Position numbers and translations under genes: made by a program
Shown: positions 6,448-53,009 of the stretch, one piece after another
Layout: the number at the start of each line of letters is the position of its first letter
How positions within the stretch are numbered: position 1 is the stretch's first letter
Notes under the pieces: model-generated
The model's database searches: none
What the model was told of the DNA's origin: nothing
Seen by the model: only the letters and a program-made list of their open reading frames with translations
Assembly (NCBI GenBank): GCA_030390025.1
Contig: CM059432.1
Span: forward strand, 71,860,001-71,924,000
Reading direction: 5' to 3'
Length of the DNA stretch: 64,000 nucleotides
From: Squalus acanthias
Lineage: Eukaryota

Positions 6448-7200
6448 TCATTGGAACCAGAGTCTGATTGGCTTTGATTGCTGGCACACCGGACTGGCGC
6501 AGGATGAAGGCATCATGACTGCTACCAGGATACCGGGCATTCACCATCATGATGTGCTGGGTTTGGTCGTACACCAACTACACGTTAAGTGAGTGGTAGA
6601 CTTTGCGGTTACAGAACATCTCAGGATTGTTATGCGGCGCCAGCAAAGCCACATGTGTGCAGTTGATGGCGTTCTGCATCATGGGGAAGACCGATATCCT
6701 GGCAAAGCCACATGTGCGCTCCTCCTGCTTCTCTCTGTTCAGAGAGAAGCCAATGAAGGCTCTTCTCCTGGAGTACAGAGCCTCTGTGACCTCCCGAATG
6801 CAACGATGGACGGTGAACTGGGAGATTTTAGGAATGTCGCCTGCTCCATACTGAAACAATCCAGTAGCAAAAAAATTGAGGGCCACGGTGACCTTGAGGG
6901 TCACTGGCAGCACCATCGCCGCCCTGCTCTGAGGCTGCAGGTCTGGTTCCAGGAGGTCACAGAGTTCTGTGACAACCTCCTTGGTGAAGCGGAGCCTCCT
7001 AATACATTGCTCTTGGCTTAAGTGCAGGTAGGAGAAGTGATCTCGGAAAACCCTAGGTAGGTAATGCCTCCTGCTGAGAGCCCTCCTGCACCCCCCGCCC
7101 CCACACCACCCCCCACCACCCCTGCGAGCAGCTTCTCTTCTTCACTGCCTTCGCTGCACGCTGCAGCAGGGGGCCCAAGTTTGTGCGAGGCCAGCACCAC
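6448..7200 (-). pseudogene. Harbinger H1 transposase remnant (internal deletion, 5' end lost)
   Basis: VTVALNFFATG, NAINCTHVAL, RYPGSSHDAFILRQS. Confidence 0.9.
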
Positions 7201-7301
7201 TTAAAGCCAGCCTGCATTTCTTAAAGGGAAAGTGCATTCTGGCTAGAGCAGGTGCTGCAATGGCTTGTGGAAGAGAGCCTGAGCAGGAAGAAGACTGAAT
7301 T

Positions 7302-9184
7302 ATGGCACAACAGGGGAGAGAGCATGCTCCAAGGTTCTCTGACGCTGCACTAGAGGCCTTGGTGGAGGAGGTGGACAGGAGGAGAGAGGTCCTCTAGCCA
7401 CAGGAGGCCAAACTCTGTAAAGGCAGTTGGATCAGATAGCGTAGTGGTTAATGCCAAGAGTCAAGCCCTGAGGACCTGGATGCAGTGCCACAAGAAGTTC
7501 AATGACCTCACACGAGTGGTCAAGTTCACTGAATTCATTTTCAAATGCCATATTCCACCACTGCACCACTAGCCTCACATACTGCTCAATGCACCAGACC
7601 CCATCACTCACCTACCAACAATCTCTACCAAACAGGACTCATACCTCACATTCATATGCTTCACCTCACCCTCATGCACTTACCACTGCTGAAAGCCTCA
7701 CACCCATATCTCACAGCTTGTACACATTGCCAGCTATTCAATCATGACAGGCACATCGTCCAAACACATTGCACCACACTCACTGACACACTTCCCTCTC
7801 TTTAGCAGAATAAGTTGGCATAACCAGAGGCAGCAGGAACTAACTGGCAGGGGACAGTCACGCCTGCATGACCTTACCCCGATGGAGGAGATGGTGCTGG
7901 TCATCATTAGAGCGGCCACTGTTGAGGACTCAGCCAGCGGCGGGGCTGAAACCATCGAAGATTACATTATCCTCATACCTTATCCTCTTTCCACTCATCC
8001 CACTATCTCTTCTGATTAACAAGCTGCAGATATTGTAAGAATGCACCTCTTGCTTTCCCCCCTCCCCTCACCACAACCCTATCCTTGTGCCTTTCTCCTT
8101 TCAGATACCCAAGAACTGCAACCTGGCCATGCAGTGGTGGAAGAGCAAGAGGTGGAAGAGCAGGAAGACAGTGATGAAGAAGAAACACGCGATTTCACAC
8201 TCGCAGCCACCAGCTCAGATACTGACACTGGGCGTAATATAGAGGATAGTATAAAGGCGGGATCTGCATGTGGTGAGACACCGGGCATGAGTGGCCTGCA
8301 GCCAGGGTAGGGGACAAGGGTTACACAGTTGCCAGCTCCCTGGAGGGCAAGATCACACACAAGTTCTGCTGCAGAGGACTCAGATGAGCACTTTGATGGG
8401 GCAGGCTATAGAAGAATGCTGATGGGTATGCACAATAAATCGCTTGGTGCATTGGCAGGCCTGCCAGAAAGCCTGAGTGCAAGGAGGAGTCCGGCACTAA
8501 CCTTGCGCAGGGCTTTGTGCAGAGCTTGGAGCCCATCCTTTCCAGCATGGAAGTGGTGGCCAACTCCATTAGCACACTTGCGGACCCAACCATGATGGCC
8601 ATCTGATGGCTGATGTCTCAGCTTCCAGTGCAGCCCAAGCAGTCCAGTAATCTATCCTCCAACAGATTACTAGGATTGCTGAGGTGCTGTCCCCGCCGTT
8701 CCCCGCCCCCCCCCCCCCCCCCGGGAGTGGCAGTGGCTCAGTGGAGCAACGTCTGGGTGCTGCCGCGCAAGCTCAGACTGCTGCCATCGTGGTTGCAGAT
8801 ACCAGTGTTCAAAGGGTGTCACAGCAGTCCAGCAATCTGTCCTCTAACAGATTACTAGGATTGCTGGGATAGCACGAACCTGCTGTCCTCTCTCAGGATG
8901 ACAGCATTCATCCTCCCACCCCTGCCACTCCGCCAGTGCCCAAGCTGTAGCCTGCTAGCCCGGACTGCTGCTGCTCATGCCGAGATGGTGCAGTCCAAAG
9001 CTGGGCCTTAAAGGCCCAGAGCTGATCAAGGTCATCCCCCAAGGCCTCTGTAGTCTCCTCCAGTGAAAGTCAGCAGCCTTCCGCCAGCCATGCTGCAGCC
9101 ACTGGGGTAGCACAGCGTAGGAGCACTAGGACAGGCAAAGGCACACGGAGGACAGGCACTAAGGGAATGTACAGGTGTGATTAG
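7302..9184 (+). pseudogene. H2 Myb/SANT partner gene, disrupted
   Basis: MAQQGREHAPRFSDAALEALVEEV...QCHKKFNDLTRVVK; three-exon layout as in intact copies. Confidence 0.85.
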
Positions 9185-9345
9185 TTGATGTTTGTATACA
9201 ATATGGCATGGTTTGATTTATAAATTTGGTTTGGAATGTTTATTTTGTGTTGGTTTTTATTTTTGCATTGTGACCACTGTGATGGTTAGTGACAGAGGGA
9301 AGGTAATATGTGGGTCTGTTGGTGAATGTGGAATTGGGGTTGCGT

Positions 9346-10478
9346 TTACTGGTGTCGCAGTCAGATGAGTTGGTCACGGACAGACCGGCCAGAAAGGGGC
9401 TTTCAAGGTTGCCCCCTCCCTTCCTCGTCCTCCTCCTCTCCCTTCTCCTCCTCCTACTCCTGAGCTGGTCACCATAAAGCTGGTTGCAAGGCTGTGCCCT
9501 CATGATGGCGAGGTTGTGCAGCATGCAGCAGAACACCACAAATCTTGACACCCGATCTTCCAAATACTGCAGGCCTCCTCCAGTGCGGTACAGACAGCAG
9601 ATGCATTGCTTCAGCACACCAATGGTCTGCCATTTCATGTGGCAGCATGGCTTTCGTTATTTGCAAGCTGCCCATGTGTGTGTGGATTGCTCACCGGAGT
9701 CATGAGCCATGTTGTTAACGGATAGCCATTGGTGCCCGGTAGCCATCCTCTGGTTTGTCGTGGTGGCTCAAATGCAGATGGCATAGCGGACTGCCGCAGA
9801 ATGAAGGTATCATGACTGCTGCCAGGATACTGGGCATTCACCTGCATGATTCGCTGAGTATGGTCGCACACCAGCTGGATGTTGGAGTGGAATCCCTTTC
9901 GGTTGTGGTACATCTCAGAGATTAAATGCGGTGCCCACAAAAGGACGTGCATGCAGTCAATGGCATCCTGCTCCATGGGGAAGCCTGCAATACTCACAAA
10001 GCCATGTGATCACTACGCCTCCTGCTCTCTGGCCAGAGAGAATGAAATATATTCAACTCTCTTGGAATACAGAGCCTCAGTTAACTCCCTTATGCAACAG
10101 TGGATGGCAAACTGGGAGATGTTGGAAATATCTGCTGCTCCAGCCTGGAAGGATCCCGACACATAAAAGTTCAAGGCCACCGTGACCTTCACAGCCACTG
10201 GCAATGCGGTCCTCGCCCTGCTCTGAGGTTGCAGTTGTGGCTGCAGCAGGTGGTAGATTTCAGTCAGGACGTCCTTAGTGAAGCTCAGACATCTGACACA
10301 CTGTTCCTCGTTGAATTTCAGGTAAGAGTATTGCTCCCTGAACACCCTGGGCGGATGTGGCCTCCTGCTGAGAATCCTTCTACCCCTCCTCCTCCTCCCT
10401 CTTCCAGCAGCTTAACCTGCCCTGTTCATTCTCCCTGTCATGCAGTAGGCCAAGAGGAATACCTACTACTGCACCCAT
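9346..10478 (-). pseudogene. H2 Harbinger transposase, frameshifted
   Basis: VAVKVTVALNFY, AIDCMHV, YPGSSHDTFILRQS, CCMLHNLAIMR. Confidence 0.92.
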
Positions 10479-12284: not shown

Positions 12285-13662
12285 ACAGTCAGCATAGATT
12301 TGTTAAGGGAAGGTCGTGTCCGACTAACTTGATTGAATTTTTTGAGGAGGTAACAAGGAGGGTTGATGAGGGTAGTGCGTTTGATGTAGTCTACATGGAT
12401 TTTAGCAAGGCCTTTGACAAGGTCCCACATGGCAGACTGGTCAGAAAAGTAAAAACCCATGGGACCCAAGGGAAAGTGGCAAGTTGGATCCAAAATTGGC
12501 TCAGTGGCAGGAAGCAAAGGGTCATGGTTGACGGATGTTTTTGTGACTGGAAAGCTATTTCCAGTGGGGTTCCGCAGGGCTCAGTACTAGATCCCTTGCT
12601 TTTTGTGGTAAACATCAATGATTTAGACTTCAATGTAGGGGCATGATTAAAAAGTTTGCAGATGATACAAAAATTGGCCATGTGGTTGATAGCGAGAAAG
12701 AAAGCTGTAGGCTGCATGACCATATCAATGGACTGGTCAGGTGGGCAGAAAAGTGGCAAATGGAATTCAATCTGGAGAAGTGTAAGATAATACATTTGGG
12801 GAGGGCTAACAAGAAAAGGGAATACACAATAAATGGTAGGATACTGAGAAGTGTAGAGGAACAGAGGGACCTTGGAGTGCATGTCCACAGATCCCTGAAG
12901 GTAGCAGGATAGGTAGATAAGGTGATTAAGAAGGCATACGGGATACTTTCCTTTATTAGCCGAGGCATAGAATATAAGAGCTGGGAGGTTATGCTTGAAC
13001 TGTATAAAACACTAGTTAGGCCACAGCTAGAGTACTGTGTACAGTTATGGTCACCACATTACAACTAGTTTTGTATTTGTCTGAAAATATAAAGGTCTTT
13101 GCATTGTCCTCTGAATCCTTCCACGATCAGCCCCAACACCAACATCACCAGGAAAGATGTGATTGCACTAGAGAGGGTACAGAGGAAATTTACGAGGATG
13201 TTGCCAGGACTGGAGAATTTTAGCTATGAGGAAAGATTGGATAGGCTGGGGTTGTTTTCTTTGGAACAGAGGAGGCTGAGGGGAGACTTGATTGGGGTGT
13301 ATAAAATTATGAGGGGCCTAGATAGAGTGGATAGGAAGGACCAATTTCCCTTAGCAGAGAGGTCAATAACCAGGGGGCATAGATTTAAAGTAATTGGTAG
13401 CAGGATTCGAGGTGAGTTGAGGAGAACTTTTTCCACCCAGATGGTGGTGAAGTTCTGGAACTCACTGCCTGAAAGGATGGTAGAGGCAGGCATGCTCATC
13501 ACATTTAAAAAGTACTTGGATATGTACTTGAAGTGCCGAAACCCACGAGGCTACGAACCAAGAGCTGGAAAATGGGATTAGGCTGGATAGCTCTTTTTCG
13601 GCCGGTACAGACATGATGGGTCGAATGGCCTCCTACTGCGCCGTTAATTTCTATGATTCTAT
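12285..13662 (+). mobile_element. CR1 LINE (CR1-B), 5'-truncated, HER1-like 3' tail
   Basis: YMDFSKAFDKVPH, GVPQGSVL, FADDTK; ends gaatggcctcc...ttctatgattctat. Confidence 0.93.
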
Positions 13663-13937: not shown

Positions 13938-14551
13938 AGAGTAACAGAGAGGGTGATGAGGGCAGTGCAGTTGATGTTGTGTATATGGACTTTCAAAAGG
14001 CATTTGATAAAGTACCACAAATTAGGCTTGTTAGCAAAATTGAAGCCCATGGGATAAAAGGGGCAGTAGCAACATGGATACAAAATTGGCTAAGGGATAG
14101 AAAACAGGGAGTTGTGGTGAATGGCTGTTTTTCAGACTGGAGGGAGGTATAGTGTGGCGTTCTCCAAGGTTCAGTACTGGGAGCACTGTTGTTTTTGATG
14201 TACATTGATGACTTGGACTTGGGCACAATTTTGAAATTTGCAGATGACACGAAACTTGGAATTGTGGTAAAAAGTGAGAAAAATAGTAATAGACTTCAAG
14301 AGGGCATAAACAGGCTGGTGGAATGGGAGGACCCATGGCAGATGAAATTCAATGCAGAAAAGTTTGAGGTGATACATTTTGGTTCGAAGAATGAGGAGAG
14401 ACAATACATGCTAATTGGTGCAATTTTCAAGGGGGTGCAAGAACAGAGAGACCTGGGGGTGCTTTTGCACAAATGTTTGAAGGTGGCAGGACAGGTTAAC
14501 AAAGCAGTTAATATAGCATATGGGATCCTGGGCTTTATAAATAGAGGCGTA
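13938..14551 (+). mobile_element. CR1 LINE (CR1-C), 5' part
   Basis: YMDFQKAFDKVP, FADDTKLG, KAYGILGFINRG; continues at ~20259. Confidence 0.9.
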
Positions 14552-15281
14552 GGCCAGAATTTTGCCGGTGCTCAGAGTGCGGGTTTGGAGGTGGGTCCGC
14601 TGTCAAAATAGCAATGATTGACAGTGGGTAGGAAACCCGCTGTCAACCCGCCTCCATGCAATTCTTCCAGGTGTTGGGTCTGCCAGCGGAGAACTGACCC
14701 GACATCAAGCAGCGGGGGAGACAATTGAGCTCATTAAATGGCTTGTTAAGAGCCAATTTAATGGTATTTTGAGGCTTCCTTCCAATTTTACGTGCTCCCC
14801 CACGGGTTGCCCGCTGCTTGAGCAACACGCCAGCTCACCCCGGCGTGAGTTGAGTCTGTTCTGATGTATCTGATAACCTGACAGCTGCAGAAGTGGTGTA
14901 AAGGATGCCATGTTGCTGATGGTCAGTTTCAGAGCGCAGAAACTGTTGGTTACTGCATTTGTAAGACATATAGGGGTAAAAATTCACTTGGTTGCGCCTC
15001 CCGTTAGCGCCTTAAGAGGGCGCTAATGGGGCGCAAAGCCGCTAACGCCCGGGCGCAGAGATGTTTGCGCCGCTCGAGAACTTAACTTGAGATTGTGCGG
15101 CAGCGCTAAAACTTACCGCTGCGACCGCCTGCGCGCGCAGATTATGACGTCATTCCATGCTGCAACGCCCTTGGGGCGCCCCGGAGCGGAAATTGAGTGG
15201 CGCCCCCTGCCTTACCGCCTGGCGCTTCCAACGACCGGAAGACTGGAACGCTATCAATCGCTGTGGGGCTGGGGGGGGCGC

Positions 15282-15289
15282 TATTTAAA
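15282..15289 (+). promoter_or_regulatory. TATA-like box upstream of the transposase
   Basis: TATTTAAAGGG ~200 bp before the ATG; same motif at the equivalent place in other copies. Confidence 0.55.
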
Positions 15290-15483
15290 GGGGGCCTCTT
15301 CCTGTCTTTTTCTGTGGTCGACATTTATGCACCACTCGTTCTGAGAGAGAGAGAGAGATTCGGAGAGAGAGAGAGAGAGACTTCTACATTGACTCAACGC
15401 TTTGTGAGGTAGTTTTGCCTATTCATCCTAACTTTGTTGCTACTTTAGTTGCTGTCCCTCATTACTTTTCTGGCAAAGAGAAT

Positions 15484-16644
15484 ATGGGGGCTGCACTGAT
15501 TGGGGGCGTTGTCCTGCTCCAGCTGAATCGGAGGATACAGAGACGCAGACAGAGAGTGGCAATGATGGCCAGACGGAGGAGGGCCATCAGGCGCATGTAC
15601 AGGAGAGCTTACCCTCCCAGGGTATATCGTGAACAGCTCTCCTACATCCATATGTCCGAGGAGCTGTGTTTGCGAAGGCTGCGATTCAGCAAGGAGGTGG
15701 TCACTGAGCTCTGCCACCTGCTGCAGCCAGATCTGCAGCCTCAGCTGAGGTCCAGGACGTCTCTGTCGGTGGCAGTGAAGGTCACAGTGGCTTTGAACTT
15801 CTACGCCACTGGCTCATTCCAAGCTGCTGTTGGGGACCTCGCCAATATCTCCCAGTTCGCGGTGCATCGCTGCATCCGGCAGGTCACCAATGCCCTCTTC
15901 AGAAGGAGACGAGAGTTCATCTCTTTCCCTATGACCCCAGACAAGCAGCGTGACCGCGCTCTGGGCTTTGCGAGGGTAGCGGGCTTCCCCATGGTGCAGG
16001 GCGCCATTGACTGCACGCATGTGGCTTTGCGTGCTCCGCGTGAGAATGCAGAGGAATTCAGGAACAGAAAGGGGTTCCATTCCTTGAATGTGCAGTTGGT
16101 CTGTGACCACAGACAGCTGATACTCGCTGTCAATGCCCACTATCCTGGCAGCTGCCACGATGCTTTTATCCTGCGCCAGACTACTGTGGCAGAAGTTTTC
16201 GAGGCACCGCATCAGCCAGTTGGTTGGCTTCTCGGGGACAAGGGGTACGCATTGAGCACCTGGCTGATGACACCGCTCCGTACGCCAAACACCCCTGCTG
16301 AGCTGCGGTACAATGAAAGCCATCAAGCAACCAGGAACATTATTGAGCGCACAATCGGCGTGCTGAAACAACGGTTCCGCTATCTGGACCATTCCGGAGG
16401 AGCCCTACAGTACTCGCCTGAGCAAGTATCGAACTTAGTAGTCGTGTGCTGCATGTTGCACAACATGGCAATCCTCAGGACCCAGCCAATGCCACCAGGC
16501 CTTGTAGCACCACCAGAGGAGGAGGAGGAAGAGGAGGAAGAGGACGAGGACGATGATCAGCAGCAGCACCAAGGCGGGAGGGCGGCCCACAATGGTCAAA
16601 CTGCAAGGGCCGTCCGTCAACGGCTAATAGCAAGCCGCTTCTAG
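15484..16644 (+). CDS. Harbinger DDE transposase (HARBI1-like), 386 aa, intact
   Basis: GAIDCTHV, NRKGFHSLNVQLVCD, YPGSCHDAFIL, WLLGDKGY, RNIIERTIGVLKQRF; ATG chosen by match to the H4 ORF. Confidence 0.95.
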   Translation: MGAALIGGVVLLQLNRRIQRRRQRVAMMARRRRAIRRMYRRAYPPRVYREQLSYIHMSEELCLRRLRFSKEVVTELCHLLQPDLQPQLRSRTSLSVAVKVTVALNFYATGSFQAAVGDLANISQFAVHRCIRQVTNALFRRRREFISFPMTPDKQRDRALGFARVAGFPMVQGAIDCTHVALRAPRENAEEFRNRKGFHSLNVQLVCDHRQLILAVNAHYPGSCHDAFILRQTTVAEVFEAPHQPVGWLLGDKGYALSTWLMTPLRTPNTPAELRYNESHQATRNIIERTIGVLKQRFRYLDHSGGALQYSPEQVSNLVVVCCMLHNMAILRTQPMPPGLVAPPEEEEEEEEEDEDDDQQQHQGGRAAHNGQTARAVRQRLIASRF

Positions 16645-16938
16645 GACCCCTGCCATTGCTACCAACATTAATCAACCCAGCACGCAACCCCTAAGCCGGC
16701 CAAGGCACCAATAATTCCAACCACCAGCCATGTATATTTTGAATACAGAAACTTATTTATTTTACAAACTCTGTGTGTGTCAATTCCTCATGACAAACTC
16801 ATAGAAATAAACACAAAAAAACAGTCAATAACATAACTGGTTCTCACAACCTGGAGATAATGTCCAAAAGACTAAACAAAAGTTGGACCATGAACCTCGG
16901 CCTTTAATAAAAAAATGACCAGCATTTTGTCACACCTC

Positions 16939-18815
16939 CTACTTTTTGCCCTTCGAGGGTGATCTCCTTCCCTTGCGCACTTCCCCCCTTCTAACCCTAC
17001 TGCTCCTCCGTAATGGGACCTCAGTGGCTGCAGCAAGGCTGGTGGAAGGCTGCTGCTCGTCAGACCCTGACACTGCAGATGCCCCTGAAGGACGGCCTCG
17101 ACCACTTCTGGGCCTGGAGGGCCCGGCTGCAGACTGCACCAACTCTGCATGGGCGGCAGCAGTCTGTCCTACAGGCGGTGGCAAGTGCAGTGGAGAAGTG
17201 ACAGTGTTGGCAGCAGGAATGCTGTCATCGTGAGAGAGGACAGCAACTCCCTGCTCGCCCGACACACTGGCACTCCCACGGGGCAGCACTTCAGCATCCG
17301 GAGCAATCTGCCGGAGAACAGATTGCTGGCCTGCTGCGGCGCGGTGACAGCCCCGGGGACATGTGCACGAACCATCGAGGTTGGCAGCAGTCTGTGCTCG
17401 CATGGCCTCCATCTGAGTCTGTATGAGAGCAGTCAGAGATGGGATCACGGCAGCCAGTGACTGAATTGCAGCACTAAGCGTTAGTGTGGCATCCGCCTGT
17501 GCTACAGCGAAGTGCTCCACACTCCTTGCCAGTGACTCAATGCATTCGGGCACCCTTCCCACTGCACCCATGAGCTCAGTGTGCATGCCCACCGCCTGGG
17601 TGTTCATTTCTGCAATCAGCCGCTCCTCCTCTGCGTCCATTGCAGTAGGAGTGTCTGGCATACTCTCCCTCTGGGGAGAAGGCCCCCGTTCTTCCCTACC
17701 CCCCCCATGGCGTTGCTGCAGCCCGCTGGGTCCTGGAGCTTCACCCTCATCAGCCCCTTCCCCCCTGCTCCCCTCCGGGGAAGGCGTGTTCCCAGTGTGG
17801 GCATGGGCTTCCTCGGGAGAGGGTGGCACTGATGCTCTGGCTTCCTCTTCCTCCTCAGCTGCAGCATCACTCCCAGTGGCAGCTTCAGGGCCCGTCTCCT
17901 CAGCTGGTGAATCACCATCTGAAAGCAGGGAGGTACAAGAGTGGCTTTAGCGTGAGGACAGGGTGGCAGTAAGGGAGGAATAAGTGCAGCGAGTTAGCAA
18001 GTTGGATTGAAAGTGTCAAAGGCTGGTGTTGTGAGGGACAAGTGGAAGGACAGAGGACAAAAAGGTGATGACCTTACCATTGCTGTCCAGAACGGGGTCG
18101 GCGTCTCCAGTGGCGACGGGACCGATCACCCGGCTTGCCACAATCCTGTGGACGCGCTCCTCCAGATCGCTGAGGGGTTGCAGCTGAGGCCGCCCTCCAC
18201 CTGTCCATTGCTGCTGTCTCCTATTATGAGCCAGCTTAGCCTGCAAGAAAAAGGACAGCATCTGAGTAAATATACAGCCATGGTCTTGCCTGATGTGCCT
18301 CCCATAGGTGAATAGCCCTTACAATATGCAGCCATGGTCTTGCCTGATGTGCCTCCCATAGGTGAATAGCCCTTACAATATGCAGCCATGGTCTTGCCTG
18401 ATGTGCCTCCCATAGGTGAATAGCCCTTACTGTATGCAAAGTGTGGAATGTGTGTGTGTGTTTCATGAAAGGGCCATAGGTGTTGGATGAGTGTTGTGCA
18501 TTGGGGTTTTAAGACCCTCTGGCCATAGAGTGAGGTTGAGATGGAGGGATGGAGAGGTATTGAGAAAAAGCCACTCACCCTGACGACCCGAGTGAGGTCG
18601 TTGAACTTTTTGCGGCATTGAGTATGGGTCCTGGGCACCATGCTCCTGGAGGAGACGCTCTGAGCCACCTCCCTCCACACTCTTCTGAACTCGCGTGGCA
18701 AAGGCCTCCTGCCACTCTCAGGGAACAGCATACATCGTCTGCGCTCCACTGCGCCAACCAGAGCATCCAAGGCCCGCTCGGTGAAGCGATGAGCGCGTTC
18801 TCTCACCCTCTCCAT
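16939..18815 (-). CDS. Harbinger Myb/SANT-like DNA-binding partner, 3 exons (18815-18579, 18240-18078, 17918-16939), 459 aa
   Basis: GT-AG introns (gtgagt/ttgcag, gtaagg/tttcag), phases 0 and 1, 1380 nt open; N-terminus RFTERALDALV...WREVA...QCRKKFNDL is NAIF1/MYPOP-type. Confidence 0.9.
18269..18438. repeat. 3 x 54-bp tandem repeat in Myb intron 1 (H3)
   Basis: cagccatggtcttgcctgatgtgcctcccataggtgaatagcccttac at 18275, 18329, 18383. Confidence 0.95.
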
Positions 18816-19895
18816 GCTTGGCAGCAAAATGGATTCACAGGTCTCTCCAGGCTGAGATTCAAGGCTGCAATGAGCAGGGTGTGGCTGGGGAGCAAGTGGC
18901 CCCCCCCGCTTTAAGAAGTGTCCGGCGCCAGTGTGTCTGTGTTCCCTCGCTAACTGGCAGCAGCTGCGCTGCGCTCGCGCGCTGAGTTAGCGCCTCACTC
19001 CTTGGCCTTTGCGCCTTAAGACAGGTGTGCAGCGCCTGCTTTAGCGCTCCACTCACCTCCCGGGGCGTTAAAAGTGAAGTTTCCTGTCAGTGCCGATAAT
19101 TAGCGCCAGGCGCTAATATTTGCGTCCAGACGATATTTGCGCCCCAAATGGGGCGCGACCTAATTTCTACCCCATAGAGATTTCTTTAGCTTGCAAGTGT
19201 TTAGAGCCAACTGTATGTCCAGTGCCACCTCATTGGAACAACCTCTCTCACCATTGACAGATCGCTTCTGTCATCTCACCTGCAGCTGCCATCTATTGCA
19301 GCAACATCGGTGCCCTTGAAAAAATCAGACCTTGGTCCTCTGAATCCTTCCACGATCAGCCCCAACACCAACATCACCAGGCTCAACAACATCACCAACC
19401 TTCTCCACCATCACCTTATGCTGCACATGACACAGAGCATCAGCCCCTGACAACATTGCTGCCCGGGAGGCCAGCGATGGCATCACCATGGCCAGATTTA
19501 CTTCACTTGACGCTGTAAACCCTGGCTGCCACATGATGCGCCAGGTTGACACCATCCCACACCAGCACTGTAAAGCATCCCTATAATGTCTAAGCCATTC
19601 CATGCACACTCATCACTATAGCGGGGGGGAGAGGGAAGTTATGTCTCAACATTCACTGAACTTCAGTAAGACACTTCTCAAGGTGCGCACAGAACTGTCC
19701 AATAGGGGCAGTGTTGAAAATATAGATTTCACTGTCTGACAACACATTACCAGAACTTCACATGGACATTGGCTAAACTCTCAAGTGCCCACCCTTGTGT
19801 GTTGTTAGTTGGTATGCTTGCAGTAGGATGAGGGTGAGTGTGAGGGGTGGCTAGTGAGATGGGGAAGTGATAATGTAGATAGAGAGGGATAGGCC

Positions 19896-20260
19896 GTCAT
19901 GTGCTGCCTTGATGTCAAGGGCAGTTACTTTCACCTCACCTCTGGAATTCAGCTCTTTTGTTTGGACCGAGGCTGTAATGAGGTCTGGAGCTGAGTGGTC
20001 CTGGCGGAATCGAAACTGGGCATCAGTGAGCAGGTTATTGGCGAGTAAGTGCTGCTTGATAACACTGTCGACGACACCTTCCATCACTTTGCTGATGATT
20101 GAGAGTTGACTGATGGGGCGGTCATTGGCCGGATTGGATTTGTCCTGCTTTTTGTGGACAGGACATACCTGGGCAGTTTTCCACATTGTCAGATAGATGC
20201 CAGTGTTATAGCTGTACTGGAACAGCTTGGCTAGAGGCGCGGCTAGTTCTGGAGCACAAG
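19896..20260 (-). mobile_element. Fragment of a second CR1-group LINE family (RT region)
   Basis: APELAAPLAKLFQYSYNTG, DKSNPANDRPIS, ALDIKAA; same family as 45630-47640. Confidence 0.88.
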
Positions 20261-20802
20261 CTGGAGTATTGTGTCCAATTCTGGGCACCACGCTTTAGGA
20301 AGGACGTGAAGGCTTTGGAAATTGTACAGAAGAGATTTACTAGAATGGTTCCAGGGATGAGGGAATACAGTTACCTGGATAGACTGGAGAATCTCGGGTT
20401 GTTTTCCTTAGAGCAGAGAAGGCTAAGAAGAGATTTGATAGAGGTGTTTAAAATCATGAAGGATTTAGACAAAGTAAATACAGAGAAACTGTTTCCAATG
20501 GTTGAAGGGTCGATAACGAGAGGACACAGATTTAAGGTGATTGGCAAAAGAACCAGAGGCGACATGAAGGAAAAGCTTTTTATGCAAAGAGTGGTTAGGA
20601 TTTGGAATGCACTTCCTGATAGGGTGGTGCATACAGATTCAATAGCAGCCTTCAGAAGGAAATTGGATAAATATTTGTAGGAGAGAAATTGCAGGGACAT
20701 GGGGAAAGAGCAGGGAAGTGAGACCAACTGGATTGCTCTTCGAAAGAGCCGGCGCAGACTCGATGTGCCAAATGGCCTCCTTCTGTGCTGTACTATTCTA
20801 TG
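20259..20802 (+). mobile_element. CR1-C 3' part
   Basis: LEYCVQFWAP...TRGHRFKV; tail aaatggcctccttctgtgctgtactattctatg. Confidence 0.92.
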
Positions 20803-21743
20803 AATTCAGTTTCATGGAGGGTGTGTGATCATCTGATGGCTAGTGCTGTAATGGGGAGAGGATAGACCGTCTTGTGGTGGCTATATGTTCAACTAATAGC
20901 AGATAGTCTAATGGGGAGAGCCTCACAGGGGATGTGTATCAGTCCAACACCGTGTTGTCCAATGGGGATGTTATGGGGTGGTCAGTTTTGTAGCAGGCAT
21001 GGATTCATTTGATTCTTAACAAGCAGCGGGGAGAGGGTTTGCAGCCTTATGATGGATGTGTGTCTACACAGTCCATCCTCACATTTCTTTCCCTAAAAAA
21101 TTTTCAGGCCTGGGTATGTAATGGCAAATTTTCTTACCAAAGAAAACAAATTATTAAACTGGTTTCAAACTATTCTAAGGTGCATGCAATTCTGAAGTCA
21201 AAATTATGATAAGCAAAATGATGATATACATAGGGGTAAAAATTCAGTTGGTTGCGCCTCCCGTTAGCGCCTTAAGAGGGCGCTAATGGGGCGTTAAGGC
21301 GCTAACGCCCGGGCGCAGCGCTGTTTGCGCCGCTCGAGAACTTAACTTGAGATTGTGCGGCGGCGCTAAAACTTACCGCTGCGACCACCAGCGCGCGCAG
21401 ATTGTGACGTCATTCCGTGGTGCAACGCCCTTGGGGCGCCCCGGAACGGAAATTGAGTGGCGCCCCCTGCCTTACCGCCTGGCGCTTCCAACGACCGGAA
21501 GACTGGAACGTTATCAATCGGTGTGGCGCTGGGGGGGGCGCTATTTAAAGGGGGCCTCTTCCTGTCTTTTTTGTGGTCGACATTTATGCATCACTCGTTC
21601 TGAGAGAGAGAGAGAGATTCGGAGAGAGAGAGAGAGAGACTTCTACATTGACTCAACGCTTTGTGAGGTAGTTTTGCCTAGTTCATCCTAACTTTGCTGC
21701 TACTTTAGTTGCTGTACCTCATTACTTTTCTGGCAAAGAGAAT

Positions 21744-22904
21744 ATGGGGGCTGCAATGATTGGGGGCGTCGTCCTGCTCCAGCTCAATCGGAGGATAGTG
21801 AGACGCAGACAGAGAGTGGCAATGATGGCCAGACGGAGGAGGGCCATCAGGCGCATGTACAGGAGAGCTTACCCTCCCAGGGTATATCGTGAACAGCTCT
21901 CCTACATCCACATGTCCGAGGAGCTGTGTTTGCGAAGGCTGCGATTCAGCAAGGAGGTGGTCATTGAGCTCTGCCACCTGCTGCAGCCAGATCTGCAGCC
22001 TCAGCTGAGGTCCAGGACGTCTCTGTCGGTGGCAGTGAAGGTCACAGTGGCTTTGAACTTCTACGCCACTGGCTCATTCCAAGCTGCTGTTGGGGACCTC
22101 GCCAATATCTCCCAGTTTGCGGTGCATCGCTGCATCCGGCAGGTCACCAATGCCCTCTTCACAAGGAGACGAGACTTCATCTCCTTCCCTATGACCCCAG
22201 ACAAGCAGCATGACCGTGCTATGGGCTTTGCGAGGGTAGCGGGCTTCCCCATGGTGCAGGGCGCCATTGACTGCACGCATGTGGCTTTGCGTGCTCCGCG
22301 AGAGAATGCAGAGGAGTTCCGGAACAGAAAGGGGTTCCATTCCTTGAATGTGCAGTTGGTCTGTGACCACAGACAGGTGATTCTCGCTGTCAATGCCCAC
22401 TATCCGGGCAGCTGCCACGATGCTTTCATCCTGCGCCAGACTACTGTGGCAGAAATTTTCGAGGCACCGCATCAGCCAGTTGGTTGGCTTCTGGGGGACA
22501 AGGGGTACGCATTGAGCACCTGGCTGATGACACCGCTCCGTGCGCCAAACACCCCTGCTGAGCTGCGGTACCAGGAAAGCCAACAAGCAACCAGGAACAT
22601 TATTGAGCGCACAATCGGCGTGCTCAAACAACGATTCCGCTGTCTGGACCATTCCGGAGGAGCCCTGCAGTACTCGCCTGAGCAAGTTTCGAAATTCGTA
22701 GTCGTGTGCTGCATGTTGCACAACATGGCAATCCTCAGGACGCAGCCAATGCCACCAGGCCTTGCAGCACCACAAGAGGAGGAGGAGGAAGAGGAGGAAC
22801 AGGACGAGGACGATGATCAGCAGCAGCACCAAGGCAGGAGGGCGGCCCACAATGGTCAAACTGCAAGGGCCGTCCGTCAACGACTAATAGCAAGCCGCTT
22901 CTAG
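21744..22904 (+). CDS. Harbinger DDE transposase (HARBI1-like), 386 aa, intact
   Basis: GAIDCTH, LLGDKGY, IIERTIG, RFRCLD all present; no stops. Confidence 0.95.
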   Translation: MGAAMIGGVVLLQLNRRIVRRRQRVAMMARRRRAIRRMYRRAYPPRVYREQLSYIHMSEELCLRRLRFSKEVVIELCHLLQPDLQPQLRSRTSLSVAVKVTVALNFYATGSFQAAVGDLANISQFAVHRCIRQVTNALFTRRRDFISFPMTPDKQHDRAMGFARVAGFPMVQGAIDCTHVALRAPRENAEEFRNRKGFHSLNVQLVCDHRQVILAVNAHYPGSCHDAFILRQTTVAEIFEAPHQPVGWLLGDKGYALSTWLMTPLRAPNTPAELRYQESQQATRNIIERTIGVLKQRFRCLDHSGGALQYSPEQVSKFVVVCCMLHNMAILRTQPMPPGLAAPQEEEEEEEEQDEDDDQQQHQGRRAAHNGQTARAVRQRLIASRF

Positions 22905-23198
22905 GGCCCCTGCCATTGCTACAAACACGAATCAACCCAGCACGCATCCCCTAAGCCGGCCAAGGCACCAATAATTCCAACCACCAGCCATGTATATTTT
23001 GAATACAGAAACTTATTTATTGTACAAACTCTGTGTGTGTCAATTCCTCATGACAAACTCATAGAAATAAACACAAAAAAACAGTCAATAACATAACTGG
23101 TTCTCACAACCTGGAGATAATGTCCAAAACACTAAACAAAAGTTGGGCCATGAACCTCGGCCTTTAATAAAAAAATGACCAGCATTTTGGCACACCTC

Positions 23199-25162
23199 CT
23201 ACTTTTTGCCCTTCGAGGGTGATCTCCTTCCCTTGTGCACTTCCCCCCTTCTAACCCTACTGCTCCTCCGTAATGGGACCTCAGTGGCTGCAGCAAGGCT
23301 GGTGGAAGGCTGCTGCTCGTCAGACCCTGACACTGCAGATGCCCCTGAAGGACGGCCTCGACCACTTCTGGGCCTGGAGGGCCCGGCTGCAGACTGCACC
23401 AACTCTGCATGGGCGGCAGCAGTCTGTCCTACAGGCGATGGCAAGTGCAGTGGAGAAGTGACAGTGTTGGCAGCAGGAATGCTGTCATCGTGAGAGAGGA
23501 CAGCAACTCCCTGCTCGCCCGACACACTGGCACTCCCACGGGGCAGCACTTCAGCATCCGGAGCAATTTGCCGGAGAACAGATTGCTGGCCTGCTGCGGC
23601 ACGGTGACAGCCCCGGGGACATGTGCACGAACCATCGAGGATGGCAGCAGTCAGTGCTCGCGTGGCCTCAATCTGAGTCTGCATGAGAGCAGTCTCAGAT
23701 GGGTTCCTGGCAGCCAGTGACTGAATTGCAGCACTAAGCTTTAGTGTGGCATCCGCCTGTGCTACAGCGAAGTGCTCCACACTCCTTGCCAGTGCCTCAA
23801 TGCATTCGGGCACCCTTCCCACTGCACCCATGAGCTCAGTGTGCATGCCCACCGCCTGGCTGTTCATTTCTGCAATCAGCCGCTCCTCCTCTGCGTCCAT
23901 TGCATTAGGAGTGTCTGGCATACTCTCCCTCTGGGGAGAAGGCTCCCGTTCTTCCCTACCCCCCCCATGGCGTTGCTGCAGCCCGCTGGGTCCTGGAGCT
24001 TCACCATCATCAGCCCCTTCCCCCCTGCTCCCCCGTTCTTCCCTCCCCCCCCAATGGCGTTGCTGCAGCCCGCTGGGTCCTGGAGCTTCACCATCATCAG
24101 CCCCTTCCCCCCTGCTCCCCTCCGGGGAAGGCGTGTTCCCAGTGTGGCCATGGGCTTCCTCGGGAGAGGGTGGCACTGATGCTGCGGCTTCCTCTTCCTC
24201 CTCAGCTGCAGCATCACTCCCAGTGGCAGCTTCAGGGACCATCTCCTCAGCTGGTGAATCACCATCTGAAAGCAGGGAGGTACAAGAGTGGCTTTAGCGT
24301 GAGGACAGGGTGGCAGTAAGGGAGGAATAAGTGCAGCGAGTTAGCAAGTTGGATTGAAAGTGTCAAAGGCTGGTATTGTGAGGGACAAGTGGAAGGACAG
24401 AGGACAAAAAGGTGATGACCTTACCATTGCTGTCCACAACGGGGTCGGCGTCCCCAGTGGCGACGGGACCGATCACCCGGCTTGCCACAATCCTGTGGAC
24501 GCGCTCCTCCAGATCGCTGAGGGGTTGCAGCTGAAGCCGCCCTCCACCCGTCCGTTGCTGCTGTCTCCGATTATGAGCCAGCTTAGCCTGCAAGAAAAAG
24601 GACAGCATCTGAGTAAATATACAGCCATGGTCTTGCCTGATGTGCCTCCCATAGGTGAATAGCCCTTACAATATGCAGCCATGGTCTTGCCTGATGTGCC
24701 TCCCATAGGTGAATAGCCCTTACAATATGCAGCCATGGTCTTGCCTGATGTGCCTCCCATAGGTGAATAGCCCTTACTGTATGCAAAGTGTGGAATGTGT
24801 GTGTGTGTTTGATGAAAGGGCCATAGGTGTTGCATGAGTGTTGTGCATTGGGGTTTTAAGACCCTCTGGCCATATAGTGAGGTTGAGATGGAGGGATGGA
24901 GAGGTATTGAGAAAAAGCCACTCACCCTGACAACCCGAGTGAGGTCGTTGAATTTTTTGCGGCACTGAACATGGGTCCTGGGCACCATGCTCCTGGAGGA
25001 GACGCTCTGAGCCACCTCCCTCCACACTCTTCTGAACTCGCGTGGCAAAGGCCTCCTGCCACTCTCCGGGAACAGCATGCATTGTCTGCGCTCCACTGCG
25101 CCAACCAGAGCATCCAAGGCCCGCTCGGTGAAGCGATGAGCGCGTTCTCTCACCCTCTCCAT
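23199..25162 (-). CDS. Harbinger Myb/SANT-like partner, 3 exons (25162-24926, 24587-24425, 24265-23199), 488 aa
   Basis: Same splice sites as H3; 1467 nt open; 29-aa internal duplication. Confidence 0.9.
24616..24785. repeat. 3 x 54-bp tandem repeat in Myb intron 1 (H4)
   Basis: Same units as H3, first at 24622. Confidence 0.95.
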
Positions 25163-25701
25163 GCTTGGCAGCAAAATGGATTACAGGCCTCTCCAGGCTG
25201 AGATTCAAGGCTGCAATGAGCAGGGTGTGGCTGGGGAGCAAGTGGCCCCCCCCCCCCGCTTTAAGAAGTGTCCGGCGCCAGTGCGTCTGTGTTCCCTCGC
25301 TAACTGGCAGCAGCTGCGCTGCGCTCGTGCGCTGAGGTAGCGCCTCACTCCTAGGCCTTTGCGCCTTAAGAGAGGTGTGCAGCGCCTAATTTAGCGCTCC
25401 ACTCACCTCCCGGGGCGGTAAAAGTGAAGTTTCCTGTCAGTGCCGATAATTAGCGCCAGGCGCTAATATTTGCGCGCGGACGATATTTGCGCCCCAAATG
25501 GGGCGCGACCTCATTTCTACCCCATAGTATCTTATATGGAAACTATGCTACAGATTTTCTGTTCAATTCTAAATAAAACAAAATAAAATCGCATGCAACA
25601 ATAAAACATTTTCTGATAGTATTGGAAAATGCAAAAAAAATCTTGTTACTTATAAATGTTATAGAAACTAAAATGTTATTATAGAGAAGTCTGTAAAACA
25701 T

Positions 25702-26489: not shown

Positions 26490-28070
26490 GCAAATCAGGC
26501 CCACACGGGTGGTCAAGGTGAGTGAAGGCTTCAGAAAATGCCACATACCACCACCTGCACCACAAGCCTCATACACTGCTCAATGGACCACACCCTCAGC
26601 ACTCACAAAGCAACAATCTCTACCTATCACCACTTACACCTCACAATCAGAGCTTTACTTCACCCTCACAACCTTACCGCTGCTGCAACACTCACACCCA
26701 CATCTCACACCTTGCACACACTGACAGCTATTCAACTATGGCAGGGACATCACCCAAACACATTGCACTAAATTCACTCAACACTTCTCTTTATCTTGCA
26801 GGCCAAGCTGGCTCATAATTGCCACAAGCAGCAACAAGCAGGGGCCTGGCGGACACGTAAGAACTAAGCCAGCTGGAGAAGCGAGTGCTTCAGATCATTG
26901 GGCGCCACGTTGCCAATGTCATGGTAACCAGCAAGGTTGAACCCCTTGGGGATGAAAACGGTATGTTCATTCCTAATCCTTCTTCTCACATCCCACTTCC
27001 CCCTCAGCCCACAATCTTTTCTCACTTTCAAGCTACTAATGCTGTATGCATGCATTTCTGGCTTCCCTTCCCCCCCCCCCCACACACTCCCCACTCCCCT
27101 CACTATAACCCAACTCTTGTGCTTTTCTGCTTTCAGATAATCATCAAGCACCCGAGCAGACTGTCCCCGAGGTCACCGCAGAAACCAAGAGGGAGAAGAA
27201 GAGGAGGAAGAAGATTCTGTGTCACTGCATCTCTCACGCGCAGACACCAGTTCAGAAACTGGCACTGCGTGTACTTTAGAGGCTAGTGTAGAAGTGGGAT
27301 CGGCACAAGGTCAGGCATTGGGCATGAGTGGGCTGCAGCAAGGCCAGGAGGAAAGGGTAGCTCGCGGGCCAGCTCCCCGGAGGGCAAGTTCATGCATGAG
27401 TTCTGCTGCACAGGACTCGGATGAGGACCTCAATGGGGGGCCTTCAGAAGAAGGGTGATGGGCATGCACACAGAATTGATGAGTGCAATGGCAAGGGTGC
27501 CCGAGAGCCCCTCGGCAATGTCAAGGAGCGTTGAGGAGTCCGTCTCCAACATTGCACGGGGCTCTGCGCAGAGCATGGAGCCCAGGATTTCCAGCCTAGA
27601 AATTATGGTACACTCCCAGAGAGACCGTGCCGACCCAGACGTGCTGGTGCGCATGATGGACAATGTCGCAGTTTCCAATGCCGCACAGGCGGAAGCAACC
27701 CAGCGTCTTAGTGCTGCAGCGGAAGCTCAGACTGCTCTCATGCAGTCACAGCTTGATGCCACCCAAGCTCTGACAGCTGCCATAGTGGCTGGGTTTACCA
27801 CCGTCGACTGGGGCTTGCAAGGCGTCACAGCAGGCCATCAATCTGTGCTCCAACAGATTGCTAGGAATGCTGAGGTGCGGCCCTGTGGGAGTGGCAGTGG
27901 GTCAGTGAAGCAGGACCCTGCTGTCCTCTCTCAAGATGACAGTATTCCTGTTTCCACTCTGCCATTGCCCTTGCCACTGCCTGTCAGCCAGCCAGACAAG
28001 ACTGCTGCCACCCATGCCAAGGTGGTGCAGTGTACAGCCAGGCCTTCTAGGTCCAGAGCTGCTCGAGGTA
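26490..28070 (+). pseudogene. H5 Myb partner remnant (end of exon 1 to most of exon 3)
   Basis: TRVVK|gtgagt, ttgcag|AKLAHN, gtatgt...tttcag, MHTELMSAMARVPES. Confidence 0.87.
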
Positions 28071-28244
28071 ATAGTATTAATGTAAATATGTGTGATTTAA
28101 TTGTTAAAAAACTTATTTATTTGGTTTGGACTCTTTAGTGGTGTCTCTCATTTCAGCTTTGTGCCCATGAGGGCGCTGTGATATTCTGTGAGACAGGGAT
28201 GGTATGATGGGGATGTGATGTGCAACAGGGATCTGGGGTTTCAT

Positions 28245-29445
28245 TCATTCGAATCAGAGTCTGATGAGCCGCTCACGGACAGCCCGTCCAGATGGACAAT
28301 TGGCTACCTGCCTCCTTCCTCCCTCCTCTTCCTCTTGTTCCTCATCCTCATCCTCTTCCTCCTCCTCCTCCTCCTCCTCCTCCTCTTCCTCCTCCTCCTC
28401 CTCTCCCTCATCCTCCTCCTGAGGTGGTCCTGCAATCCCTGGTGGCAAGGGCTGTGCCCTCATGATGGCCAAGTTGTGGAGCATGCAGCAGACCACCACA
28501 AAATGAGACACCTGTTCCGCCGAGTACTGGAGAGCTCCTCTCGTGCGGGCAAGGCAGCGGAACCATTGCTTCAGTAGCCTGATGACCTGCTCAATGATGT
28601 TCCTGGTGGAAGCATGGCTCCCATTATATGAGTGCTGGGCACAGGTGTTGGGGTTGTGGAGGGGTGTCATGAGTCAGGTGCAGAGCGGATAGCCCCTTGT
28701 CTCTGAACAGCCACCCTCAAGTTTGCAGTTGCAGCTGGAAGATTGCTGGCACACTGGACTGGCACAGGATGAAGGCATCATAGCTACTGCCAGGATAATA
28801 GGCATTGACATTGAGGATTCGCTGTGCGTGGTCGCACACCAACTGCACATTAAGTGAGTGGTAGCCTTTGCGGTTACGGAAGATGTCAGGATTGTTATGC
28901 AGCACCCGCAAAGCCATGTGTGTGCAGTTGATGGTGCCCTGCACCATGGGGAAGCCCACTATCCTGGCAAAACCACATGCGCACTCGTCCTGCTTCTCTC
29001 TGGTGAGAAAGAAGCCACTGTAGTCCCTTCTCCTAGTGTAGAGAGCCTCAGTGACCTCCCGGCTGCAGTGATGGATGGTGAATTGTGAGATGTTAGCTCC
29101 TGCTGCAGACTGGAAAGATCCGCTGGTGAAGAAATTCAGGACCTTGACTGCCACTGGGAGAGCCATGGTTGCCCTGCTCTGAGGCTACAGGTCTGGTTGC
29201 AGGAGGTGGCAGAGTTCTGTGACCACCTCCTTGGTGAAGCATAGACACCTAAGACACTGCTCCTTGCTTAATTGGAGGTAGGAGAAGTGCTGTTGGAAGC
29301 CCCTAGTTGGGTAAGGCCTGCTGTAGAGAGCACTCATGGCCTTCTTCCTCCTCCCTCTGTGCACATGTTCCTGTCTTCCTCGCTGCCTGCGCTTCCTCTG
29401 CCGTAGATCCTGGAGGGCAAGGTTGTCTGCCAGTGCAGCCCCCAT
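28245..29445 (-). pseudogene. H5 transposase, frameshifted
   Basis: GTINCTHMAL, NRKGYHSLNVQLVCD, CCMLHNLAIMR, long poly-Glu, RAVRERLIRL. Confidence 0.92.
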
Positions 29446-43096: not shown

Positions 43097-44485
43097 AAAG
43101 TCTTTGAAGTGCGATCAGGAACTACTGCAAAATTAAATTATGATAGAGATATTGTGAGGCCAGAGGGTCATCAGAAAGATGAACAGGATCAGTGGGTTGC
43201 GTTTATCCACAAGGATGCACAATTACACAAAAATAATCCATAATCACTTTTCTATTGGTTAAAGTTTGTTAACAGTTATAGCAAAAGGACTCCTTTGGTC
43301 TAGTAGCAATGAATGACCAGCCTGATGCGGTTCACCAAACCCATAGAGCATCCTTGGGGTCTGGAAAAAATACTATTCATCGCTGGTATCTGACCCTACA
43401 GACTGTAATGGGAACCTGCATAGAGATTGGAAGCACCAACATTTTTGGGTCCAGACCTGACGTTATGCGACCAGCGAACACCTGAACCTGAGAGACCCGA
43501 GGATCGATCGAAATCGGTCCTCGGGTCTCATCAAGAGGCTCAGCGCAAGCTGCCGGCGCTGGTCACACCTCCACAGACAGCTCAACCTTGTGAAGAAACG
43601 AATGTCAGGCAAAAATAAAAGTTATTTCTCATTAGTGACTCTGAAGAATCCTGAGCGGGGCGGGCCCGACACCTGCCCCGCTCATCTCCGACTAATTTCT
43701 TGATGGAGTCCTTCAGTAGGTGTTAGGCTCCTAATTGATATATTTAAATTATACCCAAGTTGTTTAAAAAAAAAAGGCCTCCACGAATTTAGCAGTGGGA
43801 CCAACGCTGCACAGATTGGTTGCAGGTCGTCCCACTGCTAAATTGGCGTGCTTTGTGCCTGTTTTACACCCAAAAAACAAGTGCAATGCATACCAATTTC
43901 TACTCCAATGTGTTATCTTTGGTACTGAAGATTATTAGCTTGTCACAGCTGGTAACTTCAGTGTGCTATTAAGTCGTTATCCATCAAGTACTTTAATACT
44001 GTAGCTCTCTACAGAATGCGGGAAAATAACTCCTGCTTTTGGACTCACTGCAGTCTATAGCTATTAAAATTAATGATATTGATAAGAGTAACAGACTGTA
44101 TCAGGTCCCATTCGTTACAATAGCACAGACATGGCCAGGTTTTCTATGCTCTAAATAATTCGAACCAGATCAAGACCACAAAAGATGCTAATGCTTAAAT
44201 GAGATTCTCATTTTTCTATAAATAAACAAGTAAAAACAAATGCTAATGCTGGAAATTTGAAACAAAAACAAAATGCTGGCAGCACCTAACAGGTCAGTTA
44301 GCATTAGTTAGGAGAGAACAGAAAAGATAACTTTTCAGACATAGTTTATGACTCCAGTAAGGCTGCTGCAGACAAAGGCAGCTAACAGATTAACAGGTAT
44401 AATGAGACCCAATGGGATTATAAAACGTCTGACAGAACTGATTATATGAATTCTTAAGTCTTGTTTTATGTGACTTATTAAATTA

Positions 44486-44731
44486 AGTGGAGCCCTGGAG
44501 TGCAGTCTGGTAAGAGTCTCCAGAATCAGTTTACATTGTTGCGTCCTACATGATATTGCAATGAAGAAAGGCTGGCAGCTTCTAGTTGAAGGGGATGATG
44601 AAGGTGATGGGAAGGACCTCCATCCCCACAGCATGAGGGGTGCACAAGAAGGAGAGGATGTGGAACAAAAAAGTCATCGACCAGCAGCTAGAGAATGGAA
44701 GAGACAAATTATAGCCCTGTGCTTTGAATGA
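44486..44731 (+). pseudogene. C-terminal fragment of a divergent Harbinger transposase
   Basis: SGALECSLVRVSRISLHCCVLHDIAMKKG...acidic stretch...AAREWKRQIIALCFE* parallels SGGALQYSPEQVS..VCCMLHNMAI...ARAVRQRLIASRF*. Confidence 0.7.
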
Positions 44732-52824: not shown

Positions 52825-53009
52825 ATGAAACCCCAGATCCCCGTTGCTCACCACATCCTCATCAATCTCATCCCCATCATACCAACCCTCTGTCATGGAA
52901 TATCACAGCATCCTCCTGGGTCAAAGCTGAAATGAGAGCCATCACAAAACAAAGATCCCAAACAAAATTATTACATTTATCCAGAATCAATTCACACATA
53001 CTAGATCAA

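Follow-up and report, generated by a model that had tools for sequence, protein, structure and literature searches.

Two full-length Harbinger transposons in Squalus acanthias and a family that may have evolved as a single nested lineage

Two Harbinger elements at one locus

The window analyzed here is a 64,000-nucleotide stretch of the Squalus acanthias genome (assembly GCA_030390025.1, contig CM059432.1, positions 71,860,001 to 71,924,000 of the forward strand). It contains two full-length two-gene PIF/Harbinger DNA transposons, H3 and H4, which belong to one large family whose copies appear to have branched successively from a single trunk. H3 (14973..19173, plus strand) is 4,201 bp long and, judging from its tree position, occupies a middle rung of this ladder of copies. 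H4 (21233..25523, plus strand) is 4,291 bp long and lies early in the youngest wave, a subgroup marked by an 87-bp duplication. The two elements have the same orientation, are separated by 2,059 bp, and differ from one another at 124 of 4,199 aligned bases (97.0% identity) and by five indels. Their terminal inverted repeats (TIRs) are about 12 bp long and imperfect, with one mismatch (GGGGTA[A/G]AAATT), and so fall below the length of 25-50 bp that is described as usual for PIF/Harbinger elements (PMC9179366). Each element is flanked by an ATA target-site duplication (TSD), at 14970..14972 and 19174-19176 for H3 and at 21230..21232 and 25524-25526 for H4. The flanks of H3 and H4 are unrelated to each other, and the right flank of H4 is near-unique in the genome.

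Both elements carry a stop-free open reading frame (ORF) for a DDE transposase of 386 amino acids on the plus strand, at 15484..16644 in H3 and at 21744..22904 in H4, and these match DDE_Tnp_4 (PF13359) at 1.5e-38 and 2.2e-37, respectively. Residues D176, D226, D252 and E288, which we take to be the catalytic residues, are kept in both transposases and are the commonest residues among homologues at those positions. The two proteins differ at 19 residues, and the underlying 19 synonymous and 21 non-synonymous changes give a ratio of non-synonymous to synonymous substitution rates (dN/dS) of 0.33. H4 has one private replacement, T74I, and H3 has two, C300Y and F318L; position 300 is cysteine in 59 of 60 family copies and in 88% of 114 homologues. 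Given these two private replacements, the open frame of H3 is no proof of function.

The second gene of each element lies on the minus strand and is predicted to encode a Myb/SANT-like protein, of 459 amino acids in H3 (16939..18815; exons 18815-18579, 18240-18078 and 17918-16939) and of 488 amino acids in H4 (23199..25162; exons 25162-24926, 24587-24425 and 24265-23199). The model has three exons and two GT-AG introns and, with this predicted splicing, is in frame in both elements; exon 1 matches Myb_DNA-bind_5 (PF13873) at 5.2e-8. The greater length of the H4 protein stems from the 87-bp in-frame duplication, at 23945-24120. The gene is open with GT-AG ends in 54 of the 60 top copies, and no Myb splice joint is present among the 15 of 120 read joints listed over the element. 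Intron 1 contains a 54-bp tandem repeat of 3.1 copies (18269..18438 in H3, 24616-24785 in H4). A search for sequence matches to solved structures in the PDB at E 0.01 returned none.

The observed/expected ratio of CpG is 0.56-0.57 in H3 and H4 and 0.37 in the remaining window, and it reaches 1.06 and 0.82 in the terminal 400 bp, so that CpG retention is mainly a property of the ends. These CpG-rich ends contain clusters of the motif GGCGC[T/A]AA, located in H3 at 14973..15110 on the left and, together with the right TIR, at 18985..19173 on the right. All nine strict matches in H3 fall in the outermost 190 bp at one end or the other, with none in the interior, and the motif is retained in an 893-bp miniature inverted-repeat transposable element (MITE) of the same family. 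These GGCGC-type subterminal motifs are candidate binding sites for the Myb protein.

Thus, the structural features of PIF/Harbinger elements are all present: a DDE ORF, a second ORF of Myb/SANT type, a 3-bp TSD and TIRs. An earlier note on this DNA had described the two elements in the same terms, and the coordinates it gave are exact. Its count by eye of about 19 differing transposase residues is exactly right, its spliced in-frame Myb gene is borne out as a predicted three-exon model, and its claim that CpGs are largely retained agrees with the ratios above. It had also proposed two independent insertions, as the unrelated flanks and separate ATA duplications indicate, and had named a dN/dS near 1 and a lack of near-identical copies as contrary outcomes; the transposase value is not near 1, and near-identical copies are many, as follows.

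Size of the family

Pattern counts over the 3.71 Gb of genome searched found 10,216 exact left ends of the family and 6,584 exact matches to the transposase core. In the similarity searches, for each of which the best 35 candidates were scored, the best 35 places for H3 included 34 other full-length copies at 98-99% identity. The 80 left ends that come first on contig C1 comprise 26 full-length copies, 47 MITEs of 893 bp, three elements of about 740 bp, and four without a right end in the stretch. Both frames are open in 10 of these 26 full-length copies and in 10 of the 32 complete copies of a second positional sample. Scaled up from 55 Mb at the start of one contig, these samples give estimates of 3,300-5,700 full-length copies, of which more than 1,000 (about a third) would have both frames open, alongside about 6,000 MITEs. 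The family would then make up 0.5-0.8% of the genome; the Harbinger-like content reported for teleosts is 0.002-0.14% (PMC9179366). The copy number, the TIRs and the TSDs led us to reject the possibility that H3 and H4 are a domesticated gene pair of the HARBI1/NAIF1 type. Shark homologues of the transposase are named 'putative nuclease HARBI1' in databases. The best 67 of 376 homologues are all named sharks or rays, with a top identity of only 65%.

The non-coding 893-bp MITEs (within L062-L139; 47 of the 80 sampled left ends) are 2.2% apart pairwise and about 1.3% from their own majority sequence. Ten full-length copies were compared with them, and even the closest of these is 6.5-12% away, a gap that counts in favor of the fast trunk described below. 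The full-length copy closest to them is the mid-ladder copy L089, and the three 740-bp deletion derivatives stem from an old rung.

A nested ladder of copies and a fast trunk

We compared 60 copies picked by identity to H3 or H4 with further samples picked by position. An old and a young group of copies are separated by 181 sites, and along 43 intermediate copies these sites change in nested order: the step misfit is 2.2%, compared with 29% for a random-mosaic null and 31% for a block-mosaic null. The left and right halves of the element give agreeing orders (rho 0.89). The order also holds for 37 held-out copies chosen by position, with a misfit of 4.3% overall and of 5.8%, versus 27% for the null, in the 22 intermediates among them. 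Two of the 39 held-out stretches (L185 and L203) were excluded for mis-set coordinates, and L135, which is the L021 locus, was excluded from pooled counts. The alleles of the H3 group are interspersed rather than arranged in blocks (80 runs, 85 expected). The mosaic copy L117 and one copy of each likely duplicate pair (L020, L121 and L122) were left out of the trees; the pairs L017/L020, L119/L121 and L120/L122 share flanks, differ at 3-11 positions, and are likely segmental duplicates.

With an older side group as root, the trunk spans 1.9% to 9.5%. Terminal branches become shorter toward its young end (rho -0.77 in 56 copies): they measure about 0.8% in old-group copies and about 0.2% in those of the young group. 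H3 leaves the trunk at 6.2% and H4 at 9.1%. On this tree the two elements left one and the same trunk in succession, H3 first and H4 afterwards, and are not members of sister lineages as the earlier note had supposed. The trunk gained about 7% while idle copies gained at most about 0.8%, which is a ratio of roughly 9 or more. Relative-rate counts are 31-34 for H3 and 79-81 for H4 with the side-group root (p ~1e-5), 24-27 and 91-96 with another outgroup, and 7-8 and 22 in the ends with the MITE as outgroup. No root yields a clock-like tree, because the tips of the H3 group are only about 0.4% off a path that is about 7% long. The direction of the trunk is set by the side group and the tip lengths, and distant outgroups support it weakly.

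Selection and mutation spectrum

Private changes in the transposase have a ratio of non-synonymous to synonymous polymorphism (pN/pS) of 0.92, whereas the ratio for shared changes is 0.19-0.32 (p 5e-6). Fixed trunk differences in the transposase number 21 synonymous to 19 non-synonymous in one comparison and 28 to 12 in another, over 274 synonymous and 884 non-synonymous sites, which correspond to dN/dS values of about 0.28 and 0.13. The trunk transposase is under purifying selection, and the private changes are neutral. Trunk changes in Myb exons 1-2 lean toward purifying selection.

The trunk also differs from the settled copies in the kinds of mutation that it carries, although the trunk spectra are unpolarized, in that no direction of mutation was assigned to branches. 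The transition/transversion ratio is 0.64 on the trunk from H3 to the young group and 1.48 for private changes (p 9e-5), and C-G transversions account for 37 of 165 trunk changes. Close pairs of changes on the same step make up 23 of 165 trunk changes versus 34 of 575 private changes (p 0.001). Nearly every part of the element, introns excepted, carries trunk changes at a density of 2.4-3.5%.

Age and activity of the copies

A search with one of the youngest copies found no identical copy among the best 35 candidates scored, and the closest pair among the 38 youngest copies examined differs by six substitutions. The terminal branches of H3 and H4 measure 0.4-0.5%, with 8-13 private substitutions each. 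At the mutation rate of the epaulette shark, another species (7e-10 per generation, confidence interval 1.4-14.1e-10; PMC10587355), H3 and H4 would be some millions of generations old and the youngest pair about one million, and these ages are inflated by incomplete sampling, any insertion-time errors and assembly error. H3 and H4 are probably old and idle. The suggestion that they are candidate active elements stands insofar as both genes are open in each of them; the minimum of six substitutions among the youngest copies speaks against it. Identity of 99% and open frames need not signal present activity in a shark.

None of four sequencing runs has coverage over the unique right flank of H4, and the flanks of H3 are repeats. 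Read joints that skip H3 were considered as a sign of insertion polymorphism and rejected, since empty paralogues of its host repeat account for them. Run X17, guessed to be RNA, was rejected as evidence of expression because it covers intron, flanks and a long interspersed nuclear element (LINE) as DNA would.

A proposed explanation for the fast trunk

The reading that we favor, to which we assign a probability of roughly 55%, is that H3 and H4 are independent insertions of one Harbinger family that has descended as a single nested lineage and has evolved faster while transposing than once settled. The likely cause is that only recent, unsilenced copies are mobile and that their movement is accompanied by error-prone repair. 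A DDE transposase excises and reinserts its element. Work on PIF/Harbinger elements describes the Myb protein as binding the element ends and importing the DDE transposase (PMC2836001, PMC9392472), and both proteins are required for transposition of Harbinger3_DR and Ping/Pong (PMC2836001). Copies would be gained when an excision gap is refilled from a template, and the gap-filling synthesis would introduce clustered, transversion-rich errors; error-prone repair around DNA-transposon excisions is described in rice (PMC5023962). The CpG-rich ends would carry promoters as well as the GGCGC-type binding motifs, so methylation would silence older copies both as a source of protein and as a substrate. 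If only the newest copies are live, and few of them in any one germ cell, then a copy would depend largely on its own proteins. Coupling of a copy's fate to its own proteins would in turn produce selection like that on retrotransposons, and one trunk. This mechanism for the fast trunk would account jointly for the speed, the spectrum, the ladder and the selection.

Several observations weigh against this explanation. The repair described in rice concerns the flanks of excision sites and not the element's own lineage (PMC5023962). The roughly 6,000 MITEs were mobilized in trans, and the coupling of a copy to its own proteins is therefore not strict. Because the MITE is closest to a mid-ladder copy, the root is uncertain, and six distant relic outgroups give a weak H3/H4 asymmetry (7:6, 8:15, 9:15, 8:13, 5:6 and 8:11). 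Four-gamete incompatibility ranges from 9% to 23% and is higher at greater distances, copy L117 is plainly mosaic, and positional sampling was confined to the initial 55 Mb of one contig. Myb exon 3 (16939-17918 in H3) is without purifying selection, having 2 synonymous to 23 non-synonymous trunk changes, and 3 to 25 between the old and young groups, a pattern that hints weakly at positive selection or nucleotide-level constraint. The older trunk segment has a transition/transversion ratio of 1.15, near the private value. Finally, changes of CpG type number 14 of 108 on the trunk and 108 of 634 among private changes, a deficit on the trunk so slight that it supports an unmethylated trunk only weakly.

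A bolder form of the single-lineage explanation, which we hold tentatively and regard as possible rather than probable, is vertical persistence in the manner of LINE-1. One self-renewing lineage would be subject to effective cis-selection and to transposition-coupled mutation at about 10 times the host's rate, its youngest rung would still be running, and its more than 1,000 intact copies would form a dated series of variants.

Other explanations

Selection and speed could both arise if the lineage evolved in a faster host or vector, such as a parasite, prey or virus, and repeatedly re-entered the germ line. Horizontal transfer is reported to place all types of transposable element under purifying selection (PMC7070016), Harbingers have been transferred among marine animals (PMC8437027), and runs under nine organism labels contain at least half of the sampled words. 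However, the copies in this genome record about 40 branch points in succession, 43 by one count, which would require many invasions, and the best 67 homologues are all from sharks or rays and reach only 65% identity. Run X10, the one label examined over the element, has proportional depth over an unrelated host LINE as well and thus resembles trace host DNA, which leaves the reading of these labels as horizontal transfer unsupported. We consider an outside reservoir unlikely.

An arms race with host silencing, for example by piRNAs, is about as unlikely. Escape variants would sweep in succession, giving apparent speed without a raised mutation rate, and the shape of the ladder, with its successive replacement, is what such sweeps would leave. 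Synonymous sites have changed fast, at 21 of the 274 when the H3 group is compared with the young group, and in Myb exon 3 most changes are non-synonymous, both of which may be read in its favor. Selection alone, however, predicts no transversion-rich, clustered spectrum, and the even spread of trunk changes outside the introns also argues against it. An arms race is compatible with the single-lineage explanation, and the two are not mutually exclusive.

Slightly less probable still is that the family underwent ordinary bursts followed by neutral decay, and that gene conversion, recombination among two or three old subfamilies, or similarity-based sampling produced the ladder and the rate asymmetry as artefacts. 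Some recombination is present, the 60 copies were picked by identity to H3 or H4, and assembly errors in repeats are possible. Nevertheless, the nesting is much tighter than under the mosaic nulls and persists in position-picked copies alone, the H3-group alleles are not blocky, and no root gives a clock-like tree. Private changes are rich in C>T (305 of 634), as for germ-line mutation. That H3 and H4 represent two currently active sister lineages, brought within 2 kb of one another by local hopping, is very improbable, since open genes, the mild clustering of left ends and a relative of H4 at 3.0 Mb (both described below) are set against 8-13 private substitutions in each element, the failure to find identical copies, the position of both on one trunk, and the greater nearness of each to distant copies than to the other.

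Comparison with known systems

LINE-1 evolution has the shape of a single lineage. Under cis-preference it combines purifying selection on the moving line, neutral decay of settled copies and successive replacement (PMC7070016), and the shark family resembles it in having a nested ladder whose younger tips lie further along, a trunk under purifying selection, and neutral tips, except in Myb exon 3. Unlike LINE-1, the shark family is a TIR/DDE DNA transposon, a class said to have no opportunity for cis-preference (PMC7070016). A fast trunk with idle tips is expected of retrotransposons rather than of DNA transposons. In the same survey, which covers 307 vertebrate genomes, DNA transposons are described as evolving neutrally within a genome and persisting by horizontal transfer; the words 'Harbinger' and 'shark' are absent from its main text (PMC7070016). 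If true, a long within-genome trunk under purifying selection would be a clear exception to that view. Within-genome selection can be tested in this family, whose successive steps all survive as intact copies in a genome that mutates slowly.

Among Harbingers, the reconstructed zebrafish element Harbinger3_DR likewise has two proteins and a 3-bp TSD, within the palindromic target AAACAC-CWG-GTCTTT (PMC3016246, PMC2836001). In contrast, the shark family has an A/T-rich TSD, is known here from sequence alone, and has native open copies estimated in the thousands. Harbinger-Snek of sea kraits also shows a large recent expansion with non-autonomous derivatives, including 269 fully intact copies in L. 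colubrina, but it reflects one horizontal invasion, with a sharp divergence peak and 8-12% of the genome (PMC8437027), whereas the shark family has a long nested ladder, an estimated share of 0.5-0.8%, and top homologues from sharks and rays. LatiHarb1 of the coelacanth is another abundant Harbinger in a slowly evolving fish lineage, at 9.3% of the genome (PMC3787270). NuwaI and NuwaII, of the PHIS superfamily, have DDE and Myb/SANT ORFs as well (PMC4482050), and the C and G of the NuwaII target C-TNA-G match the flanking positions here; the TSDs that define them do not fit the shark family, because TNA is found at 21 and CWG at one of 109 insertions. HARBI1 and NAIF1 are homologous proteins but are encoded by single-copy host genes (PMC9392472), and the shark family is multi-copy and mobile, with TIRs and TSDs.

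In the grey reef shark, Harbingers are reported as the commonest DNA transposons (PMC12498223), and cartilaginous fishes beyond the elephant shark have been named as needing a check for Harbingers (PMC9179366), a call that the present family answers. We found no prior report of this family or of a single-lineage DNA transposon in the part of the literature searched, which excluded most subscription journals, Repbase and Dfam. Intact, abundant vertebrate Harbingers are not new; what appears new is the within-genome ladder under purifying selection, which departs from the pattern reported for DNA transposons. For study, the family also provides two-component elements that are native to a vertebrate and prefer an extended target.

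Target sites and the closeness of H3 and H4

A perfect 3-bp TSD flanks 109 of 135 insertions, and a 4-bp TSD flanks one. Around it lies a palindromic target preference, ARASWC-WWW-GWSTYT, of about 10 bits and similar to the target of Harbinger3_DR, in which the C and G beside the TSD are each present at 69%. The commonest triplets among the 109 are ATA/TAT (30), TTA/TAA (20) and CAA/TTG (18). Imperfect TSDs occur in nine of the 60 copies L001-L060, whereas decay of 0.3-0.5% predicts about one or two; the excess may reflect error-prone fill-in at insertion.

With respect to the pair itself, the earlier note had suggested local hopping or regional targeting. Target preference at the level of sequence is evident. 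Hopping finds no such agreement, given that the nearest relatives of H3 and H4 lie at other loci, at distances of 0.64% and 0.70% versus 3.0% between H3 and H4, and that 18-73 pairs as close as this one would be expected in the genome if 3,300-6,584 copies were placed uniformly. A local hop or a tandem duplication was rejected on the basis of these relatives and of the differing flanks. Left ends are mildly clustered (13 of 99 gaps at or below 10.1 kb, 3.1 expected), partly through segmental duplicates. The nearest relative of H4, L032 (G000:C8:74889699-74893987), lies 3.0 Mb away on the same contig in a different target, and its position is a single hint of movement at the megabase scale.

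H3 interrupts an older high-copy repeat (14551..19893, with arms at about 14551-14972 and 19174-19893), for which the search gave 4,978 candidates; the best 40 scored are at 92-94% besides the repeat itself. Twelve of 14 paralogues of this repeat are empty, with a single ATA at the insertion site, and the other two hold other TIR elements at the same ATA (L148:1854-2616, 763 bp; L150 at about 761-1500, 740 bp). One 13-bp site in another repeat is common to seven of the 109 insertions (L023, L036, L042, L045, L048, L096 and L097), and 14 of the 135 insertions are located in an octamer repeat that is presumably a CR1 3' tail.

The window also contains seven older, decayed relics of Harbinger transposase or Myb genes, mostly at about 70% DNA identity to H3 (408-1220, 6476-10372, 27222-29445, 44339-44680, 51904-53940, 57502-58158 and 61165-63391). 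Lastly, a 47-bp stretch within a CR1-like LINE fragment (13106-13152) matches a piece of the H3-flanking repeat (19335-19381) with 100% identity. The two stretches are about 6.2 kb apart, or about 2 kb without H3, and the match looks like a locally templated insertion.

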